A stretch of DNA of 64,000 nt from an uncultured Candidatus Saccharibacteria bacterium (GCA_964350165.1 CAYGJA010000001.1:248377-312376), one strand, 5' to 3'. Positions 1,761 through 58,495 are shown, counted from the stretch's first letter. The notes: generated by a model not told the origin, from the sequence alone. Program-made: numbers and translations.

Positions 1761-2006
1761 GGTGATTTTTGAAAATTGGGTAAAAAAAAGACGGTGTCAT
1801 ACAGAGTACAACAACCGCCCTGCTTTGAGGCCCCACCTCTCACCTTTTACCAAACCATCTATTGGTGAGGCCTCTCTTCACTACTTCAAAAATTGCCTGC
1901 GTATCTTTTTCAAATCTATCACACCAAATAGTAGTGTCAATGGCTTGACAAGTGCTATTAAATAATGGTATAATATAAAAAGAAAGTATCTGGTTCTTTG
2001 ACAAAT

Positions 2007-2083
2007 GGTTGGTGAAACGGTGAATCTAGAGCATTCCCAGGCGGCAAGCCTGATGAATTAGACTCACCGTTTTACCAACCAAA
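2007..2083 (+). promoter_or_regulatory. Long imperfect inverted repeat (18-bp arms, 41-nt loop with nested 5-bp hairpin) immediately upstream of GC-rich gene start
   Basis: TGGTTGGTGAAACGGTGA ... TCACCGTTTTACCAACCA, one G-U wobble. 3' arm ends 9 nt before ATG 2093. No T-run, so not a classic terminator. Confidence 0.4.
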
Positions 2084-2092
2084 TCATCAATT

Positions 2093-3097
2093 ATGAAAAA
2101 AAGTATTTTTATCATCGCCACCACCCTGCTCCTGACCTTTTCTGTCCAGGCTCAGGACACAACCTGGACCTCTGTTACAGAGGTCCAGGGGGTAACCCTG
2201 GCCTCCTGGGTCAACCCAGCGGGAGACTGGGTGACACAGGTCACCGCACCCCTCCCGACGGGAGCGGTCGCCCTCCGCTGGGCGCCCGCTGACTCCTCGG
2301 CTGGGCGAGCACTGGCGCCCACCCAACACTACGAAATCGTGTCCTTGGAGGCACACCTTCCCCTGCTGGGGTGGGTGATCCTCCAAACAACGGAGGACCT
2401 GGCGGACTCGACTGAGTCCGCTAGGTCGGAACAATATTTGACCCCCCTCCCCGAGGGGACGGACTTCGTCAGGTGGAGTCACGGATTCCCGGCGAACCCG
2501 GGGGCGGTGGAAGTGAACAGCCTCCACGTGGAGGCTAAATGGGGCCTGGACCCCACCGCCTTTCCGGTCGAGTGGCTCTATTTTGAGGCCAAGACGACCG
2601 CCGAAGGGGTTGCGCTCAACTGGGCCACGGCTCAGGAGCTGAACTCCGACCGGTTCGAGGTGGAGCGCAGCGCCGACGGTACGGAGTGGGCTAACATCGG
2701 CCAAGTGGCCGCAGCTGGCTGGGCTGACTCCAAATCGGAGTATCGGTTCACCGACACCACCGCCTCCGGCCGGATGTACTACCGCCTCCGTCAGGTAGAC
2801 TTTGACGGCGCCACCGACTACAGCAGTGTGGTCGAGGCGGTCGTCGAGGCCCCCACCTCAGCCGGGCCGACCCTTCGGGTCACGAGCTGCGCGGGCAACC
2901 CGCAGGTCCACGGACTCGAGGTGGGGGCCACTGGCATGCTTCAAGTCTATGACCTGAGAGGCCAGCTGGTCTACACCAGCCAGGTGTACGGCACTGGGCA
3001 GCCAGTTACGGTCGCCCTGCCAGACCTGCCCGCCGGCCTCTACACCGCCACCATCACTGACGGCCACGGCGGAATCGGCAAGGTGCTGATAAAGTAG
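2093..3097 (+). CDS. Secreted protein with Bacteroidota-type signal peptide and C-terminal T9SS sorting domain (Por_Secre_tail-like)
   Basis: N-term MKKSIFIIATTLLLTFSVQAQ. C-term ...LQVYDLRGQLVYTSQVYGTGQPVTVALPDLPAGLYTATITDGHGGIGKVLIK matches the T9SS CTD pattern. About 64% GC with GC3-rich codons, unlike flanking DNA. Confidence 0.7.
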   Translation: MKKSIFIIATTLLLTFSVQAQDTTWTSVTEVQGVTLASWVNPAGDWVTQVTAPLPTGAVALRWAPADSSAGRALAPTQHYEIVSLEAHLPLLGWVILQTTEDLADSTESARSEQYLTPLPEGTDFVRWSHGFPANPGAVEVNSLHVEAKWGLDPTAFPVEWLYFEAKTTAEGVALNWATAQELNSDRFEVERSADGTEWANIGQVAAAGWADSKSEYRFTDTTASGRMYYRLRQVDFDGATDYSSVVEAVVEAPTSAGPTLRVTSCAGNPQVHGLEVGATGMLQVYDLRGQLVYTSQVYGTGQPVTVALPDLPAGLYTATITDGHGGIGKVLIK

Positions 3098-3225
3098 GGG
3101 CAACCCCTCCCCGCGTCGCATGAAGCACGACGTGGGGATGAAACAAAATATTTGCTTCTTTGTATAAAAAGGTCCCGCTCTGGAATTTTCCAGGGTGGGC
3201 CTTCATTTTTGGGTAATTTTTATTT

Positions 3226-4353
3226 TTATAATTCTTCGGTAATCACCTCCGCCGCAGCGTTGGCCCAATCAATCCGCAGGAACGTCAGACCAATCACCCG
3301 CCCATCGTCCGTCACGGTACGGATGCGCCAAGCGTCGCCCGGCAAATTGCTTTTGTACGAATATCCGCGATACCCACGATCGGCACCGCCAACGATGGTC
3401 ATAGGAATGCGGTCGGTGGTCACCCACTTGCCTTCTTTTTTGTACTGCCATTCGTGATAGATCCGAGCGGTAAATTTGTCCGGGGCAAACACACTGGTAA
3501 AGACATACGCCCGATCACCCGGCACCAGGGTCAATGTGTTGCTACGCTTGTCCCAGAACCGCCAAGCAGGATTGGCCTCGTAGTCAGCCTGGTACCCATC
3601 CCCCGCCCGCACCACGCGGTGATACACGGCGTCTAATTTGATAGACAGCGGTACTGGCGGCAAGACCTTGGCAAAATATGATCCGGCGATTACCACCAAG
3701 ACAGCGCCAATAATCCAACCCTTGCCCATAATCAGGCGCCTTTTTTGAATCCGTCCCAATCTGGCCAGCAGTACCAAATATCCAAAAGCAAGCACTAGCC
3801 AAATCCCCGTTGCAAGCAGGAACAACCCAGTGCTCATATCATGGAAAATCAGCGGAATTAGGATGGCCAGATATAAATACAAAGCAGTAAACAAAGCCAC
3901 TAGCTGGATAGACAGGGCTTTGAAATATCGCTTGGCAAACTCGCTCCCGAACAGAAAGACCACCAGAATAAGCAGGAGCGGCCAACTGTTCAGCAGACTG
4001 CCACTGCGTCCATAGAAAATAACCAGCCCGCTATAGATGCCACCAATAGAAAAAGCCATGGCCGTATACAGCCAGTTGACCCAGCGATCAGGTATCCGCG
4101 AGCGCTCTCCCAGACGATACCAACGGAAAATAGCCGCCATGGATACCGACACAATCAGGAGATGCACCACCAGCAGAGCTTGATCAAAAATCTGATCAAT
4201 CCGATTGAGGGTCAGATTGTCCAACACAAATCCAATAATCAACGCCGCCGGAGCAATCAGCTGGTGGTGGCGGTTGGTAAAGTTGCGGAGGTTTTGCAAG
4301 CGTCGATGAAAGGCTTTCATGGCGTTAGTATAGCGCAAAGTAAAAGACCGCAC
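3226..4353 (-). CDS. DUF2914-family membrane protein (N-terminal multi-TM + C-terminal DUF2914 domain)
   Basis: 375 aa with about 8 TM helices. C-terminal YHEWQYKKEGKWVTTDRIPMTIVGGADRGYRGYSYKSNLPGDAWRIRTVTDDGRVIGLTFLRIDW is typical of DUF2914. Confidence 0.6.
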   Translation of the reverse strand: MRSFTLRYTNAMKAFHRRLQNLRNFTNRHHQLIAPAALIIGFVLDNLTLNRIDQIFDQALLVVHLLIVSVSMAAIFRWYRLGERSRIPDRWVNWLYTAMAFSIGGIYSGLVIFYGRSGSLLNSWPLLLILVVFLFGSEFAKRYFKALSIQLVALFTALYLYLAILIPLIFHDMSTGLFLLATGIWLVLAFGYLVLLARLGRIQKRRLIMGKGWIIGAVLVVIAGSYFAKVLPPVPLSIKLDAVYHRVVRAGDGYQADYEANPAWRFWDKRSNTLTLVPGDRAYVFTSVFAPDKFTARIYHEWQYKKEGKWVTTDRIPMTIVGGADRGYRGYSYKSNLPGDAWRIRTVTDDGRVIGLTFLRIDWANAAAEVITEEL

Positions 4354-5440: not shown

Positions 5441-5756
5441 CATGTGTAGCAATTAGTTGTTTAAAACTAATCACACCGCCATTACTGGCGGGATCGGACT
5501 GTATCTTTATTCGCAAAATGCGAATAGTTAACGTGCAGTCTCTACGGGCTTATATTTCTATAATTCCCTCGGTATTGCCCGCACGAATGCTAGGGTTCTA
5601 CCGATATGAGTTAACTTTTTCTTTCTAGACGAATCTAGAAGACCGCCGTAATTGGTTGGTTCTATCATTTTTCATTTTTGTTAAGACGAAAAGACTATGT
5701 CGTTTTTTTAGGATTCAGATTGGTTCATACTCCAATTCGTAAAAATTAGAATATGA
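5441..5756 (-). other. 316-nt ORF-less insertion in 23S domain V with group-I-intron-like boundaries (U before 5' splice site, terminal G)
   Basis: Flanks GGGTTCAGACCGT | insertion | CGTAAGACAGGTTGG reconstitute the conserved GGGUUUAGAACGU-CGUGAGACAGUU block (E. coli about 2590s). No ORF of 60 aa or more inside. Confidence 0.6.
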
Positions 5757-6418: not shown

Positions 6419-6614
6419 TCATGTATTCCTTTTAAATGCTCGACATGGACTCTATCTTATCCCTCCTTTGCAGGTAGGGCCGTGACGTTGGTCTCTATAT
6501 CATCACGTTTGGACTATGCTTACATTACTGTAAGTAAGGTAACTTGCGTATTCTATTTATCTACTTCTATAACAGTCCCAGTCCTACTGATTTCTAGTTT
6601 GCACTAAAAATCAG
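6419..6614 (-). other. 196-nt ORF-less insertion in 23S domain IV between CCTAAGGT and AGCGAAATTCC (L1917-L1923 intron-site region)
   Basis: Conserved UAAGGUAGCGAAAUUCC block is interrupted. Insertion begins ACTGATTTTTAGTGCAAACTAGAAATCAG (hairpin) and ends ...AATACATG (G terminus). AT-rich, no ORF. Confidence 0.5.
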
Positions 6615-6650
<36 letters not shown>

Positions 6651-54948: not shown

Positions 54949-57900
54949 CTACTGCAGGGTGACCGCGAACAAAGCTTCGTGAGCCACTACTTCAGCCTCG
55001 GCTTCTTTTGCCAAATCAGCAATTTCTAATCCATTAGCATTAACGGTATTTGTAATGTGCTCTTGGTAATTGGCCAACACTTCTTTTCCGGCATCATTAG
55101 TTGCAATTAGAATATTGACAGCATCGGCAGGTTCTAATCCGGCCGTCTTGCGCAGACCCTGGATATGTCGAATGAGCTCTCGTGCGCCCCCCTCCTGCTT
55201 GAGCTCTTTGGTTAAATTAGTGTCAAACCTACAAGGAGAGCCGTCTTGGTCACCTTGTTCGACAACAATTTCTTTGACGTTCAGCTCGTCTTTTAATAGA
55301 TACTCGCACTCCTGCCAATATTTTGGCACGACAGAAGATTTTATAAAGAATGACTGTAGAGGTTGTCGGACGTTAATTTGTTCTTGTTTGCGGATATTGA
55401 GACCCATCGTCACAAAATTTCGAATCTGGAGCATTGTGCTCAATAATTCAGAGTCTACCGGCTTGTTCGAGTCGGGCCAGGTGCACAGGTGCACGCTTTC
55501 GATATCTTGTTGTTTTCTAAGAGCTTGCCAAATTTCCTCAGCTACAAAAGGCACAAATGGAGCCAATATCTTGGAAGATTCGAGTAATACGTGTCGAAGT
55601 GCTCCTCGAGCCATCGCCGCGTCTTTACTTTCTCCATCTTTAAAACGATCCCGACTACGTCGCACATACCAAGTAGACAAATCGTCCACAAAAGCAAAGA
55701 TAGCGCGCGCGCTCTGATCCAAAGCATAACCATCCAAACTCGCAGTTACTTCATTTGAAAAATCTGCCAAACGAGCGCTCATCCAATGATCCAGAATATC
55801 TTCACTGTTGTTGATGTCGACATGCTCTCCCTGACTATAGAGCTGATAAAAAGAAAGCACGTTGCGCAATCGTCGCATTACTTTGTTTCCAGCGTCCTGT
55901 ACGCCTTTTTCGGTAAAACTACTGCTCTCTCCTCGAACCACGGGCAGGGACACCATAAACAACCGAAAAGCATCAGCGCCATACGCATCAAACACCTCTC
56001 GCGGATCAGGATAATTTTTGAGGCTCTTGGACATCTTTCGTCCGTCTTCGGCCAACACGAGACCGTTCACCACCACTTGCTGGAAAGCAGGCTTGTCAAA
56101 CAATGCGGTAGCCAATACCATCAACACATAAAACCACCCCCTGGTCTGGTCCAACCCTTCGGCAATAAAGCTCGCCGGAAAACGAGATTCTTCAAATAAT
56201 TGTTCGTTTTCGAATGGATAATGCAGTTGTGCATAGGGCATCGAACCAGAATCAAACCAAACATCAAAGACGTCTTCGATGCGCTGATATTCATTCCCTT
56301 CTGCGTCTTTCAGGACAACTTCGTCGATATACGGACGGTGCAAATCCAAATCATAATTATTGTTATGAGGAATGGGAACAAAAGGCAATGGTCTAAGTTC
56401 AGCATTTTTAAACGGAACAAAATCCGCTACAAAAGCCATATCATTGGTGTCTTTTTTGTATTCTTGGTTTTTGGGCAAATGCTCCATCGCCAGGACATTG
56501 AGCAACCAACATACACCACCATGTGTCACAATGACTATTTTTTTATCGGTATGAGTTTTTTCTATTTCATAAAGAAAATCTCCTAGCCTGTTTTTGACGT
56601 CTTGATAGGATTCTCCTCCCGGAACCGGCGTAGCAAACCAATCTTTCTTTGATTGGCTGGCAATATAATCATGATAATCAGACCACGCTCCCCCTTCGAA
56701 TTCTCCGGGCTCTTGCTCACGCAAACGCTCATCCACAATGATGGACTCCTTTGCTAGCCTCAGTTCAGTGGCCAAGACTTCGGCGGTTCCTCGTGTTCGC
56801 AACAATGGAGAAGTAATAATCAAATCAATATCCTGATCCTTGAGGTCATGCGCGGTCACGACTGTCTGTTCCTTGCCCAAATCAGTAATAGGATGAATGG
56901 TGTTGTCATAAGCACTAATCACACCCAAAGCATTTGATTCGGCTTCACCGTGACGCATTACATAGTAGGTATTCTTGGCAGACGGAACGTGTTGTTTTAG
57001 CTCGGCTATCGAACCAATCACGATTTGTTTGCCTGTTTCTTTGTTTTCCCACACCGGCAATGGTGTTCCCCAAAAACGACTACGAGATACTGCCCATTCG
57101 CGAGCACCCTCTAGCCAATTGCCAAATCTCCCGTCTCGCAAATGCTCTGGCACCCAATTTGTTTTGGCATTGTTGGCTAACAAGCGGTCTTTGATAGCGG
57201 GCACATCAACGAACCAAGACTTGGTTGCATAATTAAGGAGCGGTGTGTCACAACGCCAACACAATGGATAGCTGTGTACGTATTTGTATTTTGAAAATAA
57301 TTTTTCGTTATGGGCAAGCCATTTGACGATTTCGATATCGGTCGACATGGTGTCTCCTTTTTTCTTTACCAACAGACCAGCAAAGTCTGTTACTGGTTTC
57401 AAGAATTTTCCACCAATATCTACGTGTTGAATAAAAGGTAGCTGGTATTGCTTGCCAAGCTCCATATCATCGGAACCAAAAGCCGGCGCTATATGCACAA
57501 TACCAGTTCCTTCTTCGGTAGTAACAAAATCAGCAGCGTAGACCTTCCAGCCATTCTCTCGGTTCTCTAGTGTTTCGTCATTGGTGTAATAATCAAAAAC
57601 AGGCACATAAGATTTGCCCACTAATTCCTTGCCAGAAATTTCTGATTCAACCTGGTGTTCTTTGTCTTTGAACACTTCCCCAGCCAAATCCTTGGCGACA
57701 ATATAGCTATGGTCTTCAAATGAAATTTTGACATAGGAAATTTCTTCCCCAACCGCCAGCGCCACGTTTCCTGGCAATGTCCAGGGCGTGGTAGTCCAGG
57801 CGAGCAAATAAGTCCCCGGCTCGTCTACCAGTTCGAATTTTGCAGTGACCGTAATATCGGTAACATCTGCATAGCCCAAATTAACCTCAAAGTTCGCCAG

Positions 57901-58476
57901 TGGCGTCTCGCAACGGGGACAAATATGCATTGGCTTAAAGCCCTGATTTACTAGCCCCTTGTCGTGCAATTGCCGGAACACCCACCAAACCGATTCCATA
58001 TAACTAGCCTGCATGGTCATATACGGATCCTGCATATCTACCCAACGCCCGGTACGCGGGACCAACCCCTCCCAATCGGCCGCATAGCGCAAAACACTGG
58101 CCCGAGCAGCGTCATTAAATTTGTCGATACCGTATGCCTCGATGTCTTTTTTTGATTTCAGATCAAGTTCTTTTTCTATCAAATTCTCGATTGGCAATCC
58201 ATGACAATCCCAACCCCAGCGGCGCGGCACACGATAGCCCTGCATGGTTTTGTAGCGTGGAATAATGTCCTTGATCGTACCAGCCAAAAGGTTACCCAGA
58301 TGAGCAGTACCGGTACCATAAGGAGGGCCATCATAAAACACAAATTCTCCCTGGGGTGCTTCTTTTTCTAGGCTTTTTTCAAAGATTTTTTGTTCTTGCC
58401 AAAAACGTAGGATTTGCTCTTCGCTTTCCGCCACATCGCTTTTTTCTATTTTTTTGGGAGTTTTAGCATCGCTCAT
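54949..58476 (-). CDS. ileS: Isoleucine--tRNA ligase (eukaryote-like type) carrying an in-frame histidine-phosphatase (PGAM-family) domain insertion
   Basis: HIGH-region PPYGTGTAHLGNLLAGTIKDI, CP1 editing domain, KMSKS (DGRKMSKSLKNYPDP), anticodon-binding domain. About 190-aa inserted domain YYVMRHGEAESN...ITSPLLRTRGTAEVL...VIVTHGGV between WGTPLPVW and DLHRPYIDE. ORF track starts at GTG 58494; ATG 58476 (MSDAKTPKK) preferred. Confidence 0.9.
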   Translation of the reverse strand: MSDAKTPKKIEKSDVAESEEQILRFWQEQKIFEKSLEKEAPQGEFVFYDGPPYGTGTAHLGNLLAGTIKDIIPRYKTMQGYRVPRRWGWDCHGLPIENLIEKELDLKSKKDIEAYGIDKFNDAARASVLRYAADWEGLVPRTGRWVDMQDPYMTMQASYMESVWWVFRQLHDKGLVNQGFKPMHICPRCETPLANFEVNLGYADVTDITVTAKFELVDEPGTYLLAWTTTPWTLPGNVALAVGEEISYVKISFEDHSYIVAKDLAGEVFKDKEHQVESEISGKELVGKSYVPVFDYYTNDETLENRENGWKVYAADFVTTEEGTGIVHIAPAFGSDDMELGKQYQLPFIQHVDIGGKFLKPVTDFAGLLVKKKGDTMSTDIEIVKWLAHNEKLFSKYKYVHSYPLCWRCDTPLLNYATKSWFVDVPAIKDRLLANNAKTNWVPEHLRDGRFGNWLEGAREWAVSRSRFWGTPLPVWENKETGKQIVIGSIAELKQHVPSAKNTYYVMRHGEAESNALGVISAYDNTIHPITDLGKEQTVVTAHDLKDQDIDLIITSPLLRTRGTAEVLATELRLAKESIIVDERLREQEPGEFEGGAWSDYHDYIASQSKKDWFATPVPGGESYQDVKNRLGDFLYEIEKTHTDKKIVIVTHGGVCWLLNVLAMEHLPKNQEYKKDTNDMAFVADFVPFKNAELRPLPFVPIPHNNNYDLDLHRPYIDEVVLKDAEGNEYQRIEDVFDVWFDSGSMPYAQLHYPFENEQLFEESRFPASFIAEGLDQTRGWFYVLMVLATALFDKPAFQQVVVNGLVLAEDGRKMSKSLKNYPDPREVFDAYGADAFRLFMVSLPVVRGESSSFTEKGVQDAGNKVMRRLRNVLSFYQLYSQGEHVDINNSEDILDHWMSARLADFSNEVTASLDGYALDQSARAIFAFVDDLSTWYVRRSRDRFKDGESKDAAMARGALRHVLLESSKILAPFVPFVAEEIWQALRKQQDIESVHLCTWPDSNKPVDSELLSTMLQIRNFVTMGLNIRKQEQINVRQPLQSFFIKSSVVPKYWQECEYLLKDELNVKEIVVEQGDQDGSPCRFDTNLTKELKQEGGARELIRHIQGLRKTAGLEPADAVNILIATNDAGKEVLANYQEHITNTVNANGLEIADLAKEAEAEVVAHEALFAVTLQ
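56395..56970 (-). other. Histidine phosphatase (phosphoglycerate-mutase-like, branch 1) domain embedded in IleRS (about aa 509-700)
   Basis: RHG motif (VMRHGEAESN), conserved Arg (LLRTRGTAE), glutamate (EQEPGEFEGG), distal His (VIVTHGGV). Flanked both sides by conserved IleRS catalytic-core sequence. Confidence 0.75.
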
Positions 58477-58484
58477 ATTGCCCC

Positions 58485-58495
58485 ATATTAGCACA
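58485..58495 (-). promoter_or_regulatory. Extended -10 promoter element (TGTGCTAATAT) 8 nt upstream of ileS ATG; near-leaderless transcript predicted
   Basis: Minus strand TGTGCTAATAT-ggggcaat-ATG. TGnTAATAT fits extended -10. No SD sequence. No T-box leader. Confidence 0.35.

Follow-up and report, generated by a model that had tools for sequence, protein, structure and literature searches.

[quoted passage not shown] The 23S gene is 3466 nt long, compared with 2925 positions in its Rfam model, and one of its conserved blocks, ...ACGGUCCUAAGGU | AGCGAAAUUCCUUGUC when read on the minus strand, is split by 196 nt. A first-pass annotation of the window had reported an insertion in this invariant block; the insertion is real, and homologous inserts sit at the same site in at least 86 other genome or metagenome loci. 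The exon–gap–exon pattern was not found once in 100 shuffled sequences. Counting along the E. coli sequence, we take the insertion to fall between U1931 and A1932, exactly at the classical group I homing site L1931 and not in the L1917–L1923 region to which the annotation had assigned it. L1931 is a known site of bacterial group I introns, occupied in Simkania, Thermotoga and Synechococcus (PMC1995217), and in CPR bacteria insertions are often met with at position 1931 (PMC11270868). The host is probably a CPR bacterium, and the insert falls within the class, delimited by Tsurumaki et al. (2024), of position 1931 insertions in CPR 23S rRNA genes that measure 100 bp or more.

The borders were set by the group I convention that the exon ends in U and the intron in G, which gives 6420–6615 (ACUGAUU...ACAUG). 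The annotated coordinates, 6419–6614 (CUGA...CAUGA), were one base off by this convention, and predict the same ligated product through a shared A. Throughout, intron position p corresponds to window coordinate 6616 − p, such that A1 is window position 6615. The predicted folding energy of the intron is −51.6 kcal/mol (z = −4.13), and none of 200 shuffled sequences was as stable. The minimum-energy fold contains the clean hairpin that had been noticed at the start of the insert, with 13 bp and a GCAA loop. As annotated, the insert has no ORF on the RNA strand; its sole ORF, of 41 aa with a GTG start, lies on the opposite (plus) strand.

The same 23S gene holds a second group I intron on the minus strand (window 5441–5756, 316 nt, ORF-less), at site L2593 (GACCGU|...CACAUG|CGUAAGACAG). 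This intron scores 41.5 bits against the Rfam Intron_gpI model, under the 50-bit threshold, and P4–P6 is present.

A family of mini introns at the same site

With each species represented by a single genome, a scan for the two exon flanks spaced 181–211 nt apart returned 49 loci, 44 of which are clear homologues of the window insert. Almost all of the 44 are in Patescibacteria/CPR genomes, spread over Parcubacteria/Paceibacterota, Nomurabacteria, Saccharibacteria, Gracilibacteria, Kazan and other groups. The remaining five loci (L016, L038, L039, L040 and L049), hosted by Omnitrophota, Planctomycetia and 'Undivivens', each hold a group I intron of the canonical compact type, likewise at L1931. 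When metagenomes were scanned for the 5′ exon followed by the 5′ motif of the family, at least 120 loci were found.

A covariance model, R1, was built on 45 sequences and recovered at least 87 full-length members at 95–199 bits, 42 of the 87 lying outside the seed. R1 gives a single hit in the window, exactly at 6420–6615 (150.1 bits, E = 2.7e-40), a score that is partly by construction because the window sequence is in the seed. Independently of the seed, the window intron is 75–79% identical to the introns of L017, L043, L033 and L008. The nearest introns, at 79% identity, come from Wolfebacteria and Paceibacterota genomes, and the nearest 23S sequence among the fetched loci is from Paceibacterota (78% identity).

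Several loci depart from the typical pattern. A typical mini intron was found on a contig in a Bacteroidota bin (L027, a metagenome-assembled genome labelled Segetibacter sp.), which may reflect either faulty binning or transfer to a host that is not CPR. Two longer introns, L073 (353 nt) and L133 (365 nt), are of the mini type, lacking P4–P6 and having A in the guide, and contain a further ~150–170 nt, as judged by eye, located in the 3′ tail in L073 and in linker X in L133, both tolerated insertion points of the family. Two weak second R1 matches were considered as mini introns at other sites. The one at L034:6600–6822 aligns with a 64 nt insertion where the model has 11 positions. The other, L168:2639–2793, was rejected; it belongs to an L2593 intron of the ordinary kind, in which P4–P6 is present.

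Intron anatomy and covariation

The features of the intron and of the flanking exon segments are listed in Table 1.

Table 1. Features of the L1931 insert and its exon flanks (window coordinates; intron numbering from A1)
Feature	Window position	Strand	Intron position	Remarks
Whole intron	6420–6615	minus	1–196	196 nt, after 23S U1931 (E. coli numbering)
H1	6586–6615	minus	1–13 with 18–30	13 bp hairpin, GCAA loop; begins at first intron base
Strand a	6580–6584	minus	32–36	GGACU; pairs with strand c
Strand b	6567–6579	minus	37–49	GGGACUGUUAUAG; complementary to 5′ exon −6 to −18 (CUAUAACGGUCCU)
Linker X	6544–6566	minus	50–72	23 nt; conserved GAUAAAYA motif
Internal guide sequence	6537–6543	minus	73–79	GUUACCU; GCUACCU in most relatives
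P2 hairpin	6516–6536	minus	80–100	core pairs 82–87 with 92–97; GUAA loop
Strand c	6511–6515	minus	101–105	AGUCC; between P2 and P3, in place of canonical J2/3
P3	6481–6507	minus	109–114 with 130–135	encloses a 15 nt loop only
P3 loop		minus	115–129	6 nt remnant 115–120; GAGAC 121–125 (window 6491–6495); CAAC 126–129
P8 hairpin	6459–6480	minus	136–157	GCAA loop; also in Rfam alignment
J8/7 and P7 3′ strand	6447–6458	minus	158–165 and 166–169	J8/7 AAGAUAGA; P7 3′ strand GUCC
3′ tail	6420–6446	minus		P9.0 (170–172 with 193–195), AGGAAU, terminal G196
AGGAAU	6425–6430	minus	186–191	complementary to 3′ exon AUUCCU (+7 to +12)
Terminal G	6420	minus	196	
5′ exon segment	6616–6633	minus		CUAUAACGGUCCUAAGGU; helix 69 3′ side and linker; proposed partner of b and guide
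3′ exon segment	6407–6419	minus		AGCGAAAUUCCUU; proposed partner of guide (P10) and AGGAAU

On an alignment of 89 rows the structure is 87.6% paired, compared with 67.6% in shuffles and at most 43% when partners were slid. The covariation score on this 89-row model alignment is 0.575; shuffles reach 0.194, and slid partners no more than 0.096. Every pair has changed on both sides in H1 (13 of 13, with 91.0% of cells paired), P2 (8 of 8; 87.4%), P3 (6 of 6; 95.5%) and P9.0 (3 of 3; 99.3%), as have four of the five proximal pairs of P8 (94.2%) and two of the five in the a:c helix (99.1%; for example, UGACU/AGUCA). The loop sequence of H1 is not conserved across the family. Of the 87 members, 62 close P2 with a plain GNRA tetraloop and some 20 others with a loop built on a GNRA core, and linker X is a spot of variable insertions in the relatives.

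The 5′ strand of P7 is GAGAC 121–125, the 'R' element, and the helix consists of G121–C169, a bulged A122, G123–C168 (the guanosine pocket), A124–U167 and C125–G166. These four pairs hardly vary across the family, at about 96% paired. Covarying pairs lengthen P7 in a subfamily of five members (GACUAU/AUAGUC; in L023, GGCCAU/AUGGUC). J8/7 agrees with the Rfam consensus AAGAUAUAGUC, and the J8/7–P7 consensus AAGAUAGAGUCC was recovered in the Rfam alignment. The intron thus has the P7 pocket with its bulged A, J8/7 and the P3/P7 pseudoknot with P8, as well as P9.0 followed by the terminal guanosine expected of group I introns. The terminal G, which had been remarked on in the first pass, is present in 87 of 87 members, and AGGAAU in at least 83 of them.

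Other assignments were considered. RNAalifold prefers GGAC (38–41) as the partner of GUCC (166–169); this was set aside as P7 in favour of GAGAC (121–125):GUCC, because pairing with GAGAC yields the pocket with its bulged A and has a covarying extension in the subfamily. The GGAC:GUCC pairing may be an alternative conformer. H1 was rejected as P1, since both of its strands are intronic and the Rfam P1/P2 alignment in this region is full of mismatches. A local hairpin, 41–47 with 56–63, is 83% paired, and the changes in it are almost all one-sided.

The P4–P6 domain is absent from the mini introns

At Rfam gathering thresholds only rRNA was found in the window, with no Intron_gpI call on the insert. 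The annotation had suggested Rfam intron models as a check, and with relaxed thresholds the insert does match the group I model (RF00028), yet at just 17.3 bits (E = 0.028), below the 50-bit gathering threshold. In this alignment P3, P8, J8/7 and P7 are recovered, and 98 model positions spanning P4–P5–P6 are replaced by 15 nt; the low score is explained by the absence of the whole P4–P5–P6 domain. When seven other mini introns were compared with the Rfam group I model in their own loci, one was detected (L010, 27.2 bits). No match to the insert was found among other Rfam ribozyme families, including the lariat-capping (GIR1) family, up to E = 10.

The limits of the missing domain can be read from full-size relatives. 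These introns, 247–906 nt in length, have the 5′ module (H1, a and b) and 3′ tail in common with the mini forms, and have an extra P4–P6 block at the P3 loop. The mini introns were aligned with L065 (247 nt), L083 (257 nt) and L062 (310 nt) and with canonical introns; the block missing from the mini forms comprises J3/4, P4, P5, P6 and J6/7, about 70–75 nt, running from the P3 5′ strand to GAGAC. R1 aligns L065 and L083 end to end, with insertions of 75 and 76 nt where the model has 12 positions. L065 itself scores 65.9 bits against the Rfam group I model, above threshold, with P4–P6 aligned. The Rfam P1 of L065 begins with the guide, so that the canonical model does not take in H1, a and b.

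The unassigned parts of the 196 nt are the 23 nt linker X, 13 nt in the tail and a few junction bases, stretches so short that there is no room for a hidden P4–P6. The 5′ module was considered as a circularly permuted P4–P6 and rejected: the strand polarity does not fit, and the full-size relatives have the module together with a normal P4–P6. P4–P5–P6 and the joining segments J3/4, J4/5 and J6/7 are therefore exactly absent from the mini form. The first-pass suggestion of a degenerate or mini intron gains support from these data, but the insert is not merely a small complete intron, as an entire domain is missing. It is well supported that the insert is, in structure, a degenerate or 'mini' group I intron, ORF-less, of an L1931 lineage that is common in CPR 23S genes, and that it retains the substrate helices and the P3–P9 catalytic half.

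Three grades can be distinguished within the lineage: introns of about 700–900 nt with a LAGLIDADG_1 gene in P8, ORF-less but complete introns of about 247–320 nt, and ORF-less introns without P4–P6 of about 185–262 nt. The family documents the stepwise reduction of a mobile intron, in which the endonuclease gene was lost and then P4–P6, and it may also show a growing dependence on the host.

A separate observation concerns the last base of the full-size L1931 relatives, which need not be G and tracks the pocket pair of P7: with a U–A pocket it is C in eight (L083, L161, L055, L115, L105, L153, L149 and L089) and U in one (L099), with an A–U pocket it is U in ten (L146, L164, L130, L126, L096, L076, L157, L135, L087 and L121), and with a G–C pocket it is G in six and A in six (A in L159, L062, L104, L058, L113 and L167), counts that may reflect three or four lineages only. 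P9.0 covaries immediately ahead of the terminal base in the full-size relatives. The introns ending in U look live, because L130 encodes an intact LAGLIDADG_1 gene. We know of no natural non-guanosine terminal nucleotide described with a matching change in the binding site, and the match between terminal base and pocket would suggest an altered cofactor specificity.

Recognition of the exons

The guide (73–79) is complementary to the ligated exon junction AGGU|AGC, with one G·U allowed, in 85–87 of the 87 members. Positions 76–79 pair with exon AGGU to form a 4 bp P1, and positions 73–75 pair with AGC of the 3′ exon to form a 3 bp P10, so that an exon-final U and guide pairing through both P1 and P10 are present. 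The U·G wobble, which nearly all group I introns have at the 5′ cleavage site, is absent: the splice-site U(−1) stands opposite A76, not G, and this A is shared by every one of the 87 mini introns. Relatives with P4–P6 have G at this guide position in 20 cases and A in about three, and canonical introns at L1931 have GCUAGCCU in the homologous place, with G opposite the splice-site U. Loss of the wobble together with its J4/5 receptor would make sense, although the association is not absolute, as L139 has both A and P4–P6.

Two further stretches of the intron are complementary to the exons. Positions 37–48 of strand b are complementary to the invariant 5′ exon from −6 to −17 in 69–87 of the 87 members, and where bases 37, 46 and 48 vary, the most frequent substitute is the other purine, so that the pair with U is kept. 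These patterns point to strand b being an extended exon-binding guide. The exons are invariant and so offer no covariation for b:exon or AGGAAU:exon. Strand b has alternative partners, namely GUCC 166–169 and the local hairpin with intron 56–63, and RNAalifold favours native helix 69 and b:GUCC. One locus, L033, appeared to offer a variant exon for a test of the clamp, and was discarded because its upstream difference is another intron, 14 nt upstream. This separate insertion lies at about site L1917, and in the region L033:947–986, ahead of the mini intron at 987–1183, a 14 nt exon stands between the two (AACGGUCCUAAGGU). As the intervening exon is only 14 nt long, clamp b in L033 could pair fully only after removal of the upstream intron.

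A proposed model for splicing without P4–P6, and its alternatives

We infer from the conserved elements that the intron would be spliced, that the chemistry would be carried out by its P3–P9 half, and that the exon clamps and 5′ module would compensate for P4–P6. In the first step, the final exon bases AGGU would bind A76–U79 to form P1, with the upstream exon clamped by strand b. P1, P2, a:c and b:exon would close a four-way junction with linkers of 0–1 nt, and H1 would stack beside the cleavage site. An exogenous guanosine in the G123–C168 pocket of P7 would then attack the U(−1)|A1 bond, while the 3′ exon would be held through P10 (G73–U75 with AGC) and AGGAAU:AUUCCU. P9.0 would bring G196 into the same pocket, the exons would be ligated and the helix 69–71 region would be restored; the ligated junction would read ...CCUAAGGU|AGCGAAAUUCC....

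Group I-type splicing is the most likely fate of the insert because the elements conserved across 87 diverged members (guide, pocket, J8/7, P9.0, terminal G) are precisely those that two-step group I splicing requires, and our assessment is that splicing of this type by the P3–P9 half alone, without the P4–P6 scaffold, is reasonably likely. An engineered Tetrahymena ribozyme without P4–P6 reportedly kept activity (Ikawa et al. 2000). Several features count against this reading, namely the U–A pair in place of the wobble, the 4 bp P1, the 3 bp P10 and a P7 that is down to four pairs in most members, and loss of P4–P6 also takes away J4/5, J6/7 and the J3/4 triples. The catalytic centre of group I ribozymes resides in the P3–P7 domain, with P4–P6 as scaffold, and P5–P4–P6 has been called universally conserved in these ribozymes (PMC6257700). 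A passage of PMC11270868 that cites Brown et al. states that insertions in CPR rRNA are reported to be removed from transcripts. It is possible, and we put this more tentatively, that the intron is a natural, stable group I ribozyme that self-splices without P4–P5–P6. The scaffold's place would then be taken by a 3′ exon clamp and by the conserved 5′ module of H1, the a:c helix and clamp b, which closes the four-way junction with P1 and P2, and the wobble would have become dispensable together with its J4/5 receptor.

A somewhat unlikely alternative is that the mini intron is a helper-dependent relic, in which the chemistry would still be of group I type, the RNA alone would be inactive and a factor in trans would be required. 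The lack of P4–P6 is what such a relic would show, and P4–P6 has reportedly been supplied in trans in vitro (Doudna and Cech, 1995). The helper could be a sibling intron's P4–P6 in the same pre-rRNA; in the window this would be the L2593 intron, and Saccharibacteria-labelled loci with the mini intron likewise carry further group I introns. Sibling introns differ between hosts, however, so that no conserved docking partner is evident, and an internal substitute is available in the 5′ module and the exon clamps. A host or maturase-like protein could also act as helper, and no candidate protein was identified. Degenerate group I introns of lichen-forming fungi are removed in vivo and show no self-splicing in vitro (PMC8527467), in keeping with dependence on a helper, while the engineered P4–P6 deletion argues the other way, in showing that the domain is chemically non-essential.

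It is improbable that the insert is not spliced at all, and is either kept in the mature 23S rRNA as an expansion segment or excised in the manner of RNase III without ligation, leaving a fragmented 23S. The Simkania intron at L1931 is said to stay unspliced (Everett et al. 1999), and some short CPR insertions are possibly RNase III-type intervening sequences (PMC11270868). The ends of the insert do not pair into the long stem of an RNase III substrate, since its 5′ end is in H1 and its 3′ end in P9.0, and L1931 is not among the known intervening sequence sites named in PMC11270868. Retention would leave the helix 69–71 linker interrupted. The first-pass annotation had allowed for an expansion segment universal in relatives and devoid of any catalytic-core-like structure; instead, a P3–P7–P8/J8/7 core is conserved, and near-invariance across 87 diverged members extends to P9.0, the terminal G and the guide complementary to the two exons, elements that would have no role unless the insert is spliced.

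The chance that the insert is an unrelated element (a plus-strand small RNA gene, a repeat or a mobile-element scar) is negligible: a plus-strand Rfam tp2 match (22.8 bits, E = 0.14) and the plus-strand 41 aa ORF are at chance level, whereas a minus-strand intron fits the conservation and covariation of the family as well as its fixed position in the rRNA. Matches to Rfam snoRNA and lncRNA families were likewise discarded as chance level.

Comparison with known introns

The L1931 introns described from bacterial and organellar 23S rRNA, such as those of Simkania, Thermotoga and Synechococcus, share with the window intron the site and a related guide, P2, P3, R and S elements, P8 and P9.0. They are 654–700 nt long, with a homing endonuclease gene and a full core including P4–P6 (PMC1995217), whereas the window intron is 196 nt long and lacks the ORF, P4–P6 and the U·G wobble. 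The full-size L1931 relatives in CPR genomes have the 5′ module and 3′ tail of the mini introns, and some of them carry LAGLIDADG_1 genes. The five canonical compact introns (192–204 nt) are near the window intron in length and have homologous parts in the guide GCUAGCCU, P2, P3, R GUAGAGACUAC, S GAAGAUAUAGUCC, P9.0 and the terminal G. They have P4–P5–P6, a P9 hairpin and the U·G wobble and lack H1, a and b; the window intron shows the reverse.

The engineered Tetrahymena P4–P6 deletion mentioned above (Ikawa et al. 2000) is reportedly likewise a P3–P9 half that draws stability from other elements. It is laboratory-made, while the window intron would be natural and maintained, with its own exon-clamping module. 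The degenerate rDNA introns of lichen fungi (PMC8527467) are also short and lack sequences needed for catalysis, and are removed in vivo; in contrast to the window intron they are eukaryotic and nuclear, and reported to be non-self-splicing. Extra intron–exon duplexes beyond P1 and P10 occur in engineered trans-splicing ribozymes with extended guides (PMC3895272); those guides are designed, whereas the clamps formed by b and AGGAAU would be natural and in cis. RNase III-processed intervening sequences are short ORF-less 23S insertions as well, but the window insert occupies another site, has no terminal stem and contains group I core motifs.

A search of the literature for a natural group I intron without P4–P6, or for the 5′ module, found no description of either. 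Insertions at 1931 in CPR 23S genes are already known, and short ones that fail the Rfam test have been described as uncharacterized (PMC11270868); a natural form without P4–P6 was not found described.

The Rfam group I model misses the mini introns, and with R1 or a similar model they would be classified and the 23S boundaries put right in thousands of genomes from CPR. The conserved family without P4–P6 makes the minimal group I fold for catalysis testable on a natural RNA. If the intron does self-splice without P4–P6, natural 'half' group I ribozymes would have their first example, and no class of rRNA group I intron would be smaller. A ribozyme of <200 nt with built-in exon clamps could serve in designs for RNA circularization or trans-splicing.

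Other features of the window

Beside the 23S–5S pair, the whole 64 kb contains no 16S rRNA gene and no tRNA gene; rRNA genes unlinked in this way are reported to occur commonly among CPR genomes (PMC8172020). Exact look-ups of proteins encoded in the window gave no record for two ORFs, and matched a third to a Logan metagenome contig alone (ERR3535002). On the minus strand, positions 54949–58494 encode a 1181 aa class I tRNA synthetase with tRNA-synt_1 and Anticodon_1 domains, probably an isoleucyl-tRNA synthetase, in which a His_Phos_1 domain (residues 511–670) is inserted mid-ORF. The region 2001–4000 has a G+C content of 57.6%, against a window average of about 44%, and contains overlapping long ORFs at 2087–2704 (minus) and 2093–3097 (plus), the latter with a weak match to a secretion-sorting tail domain.
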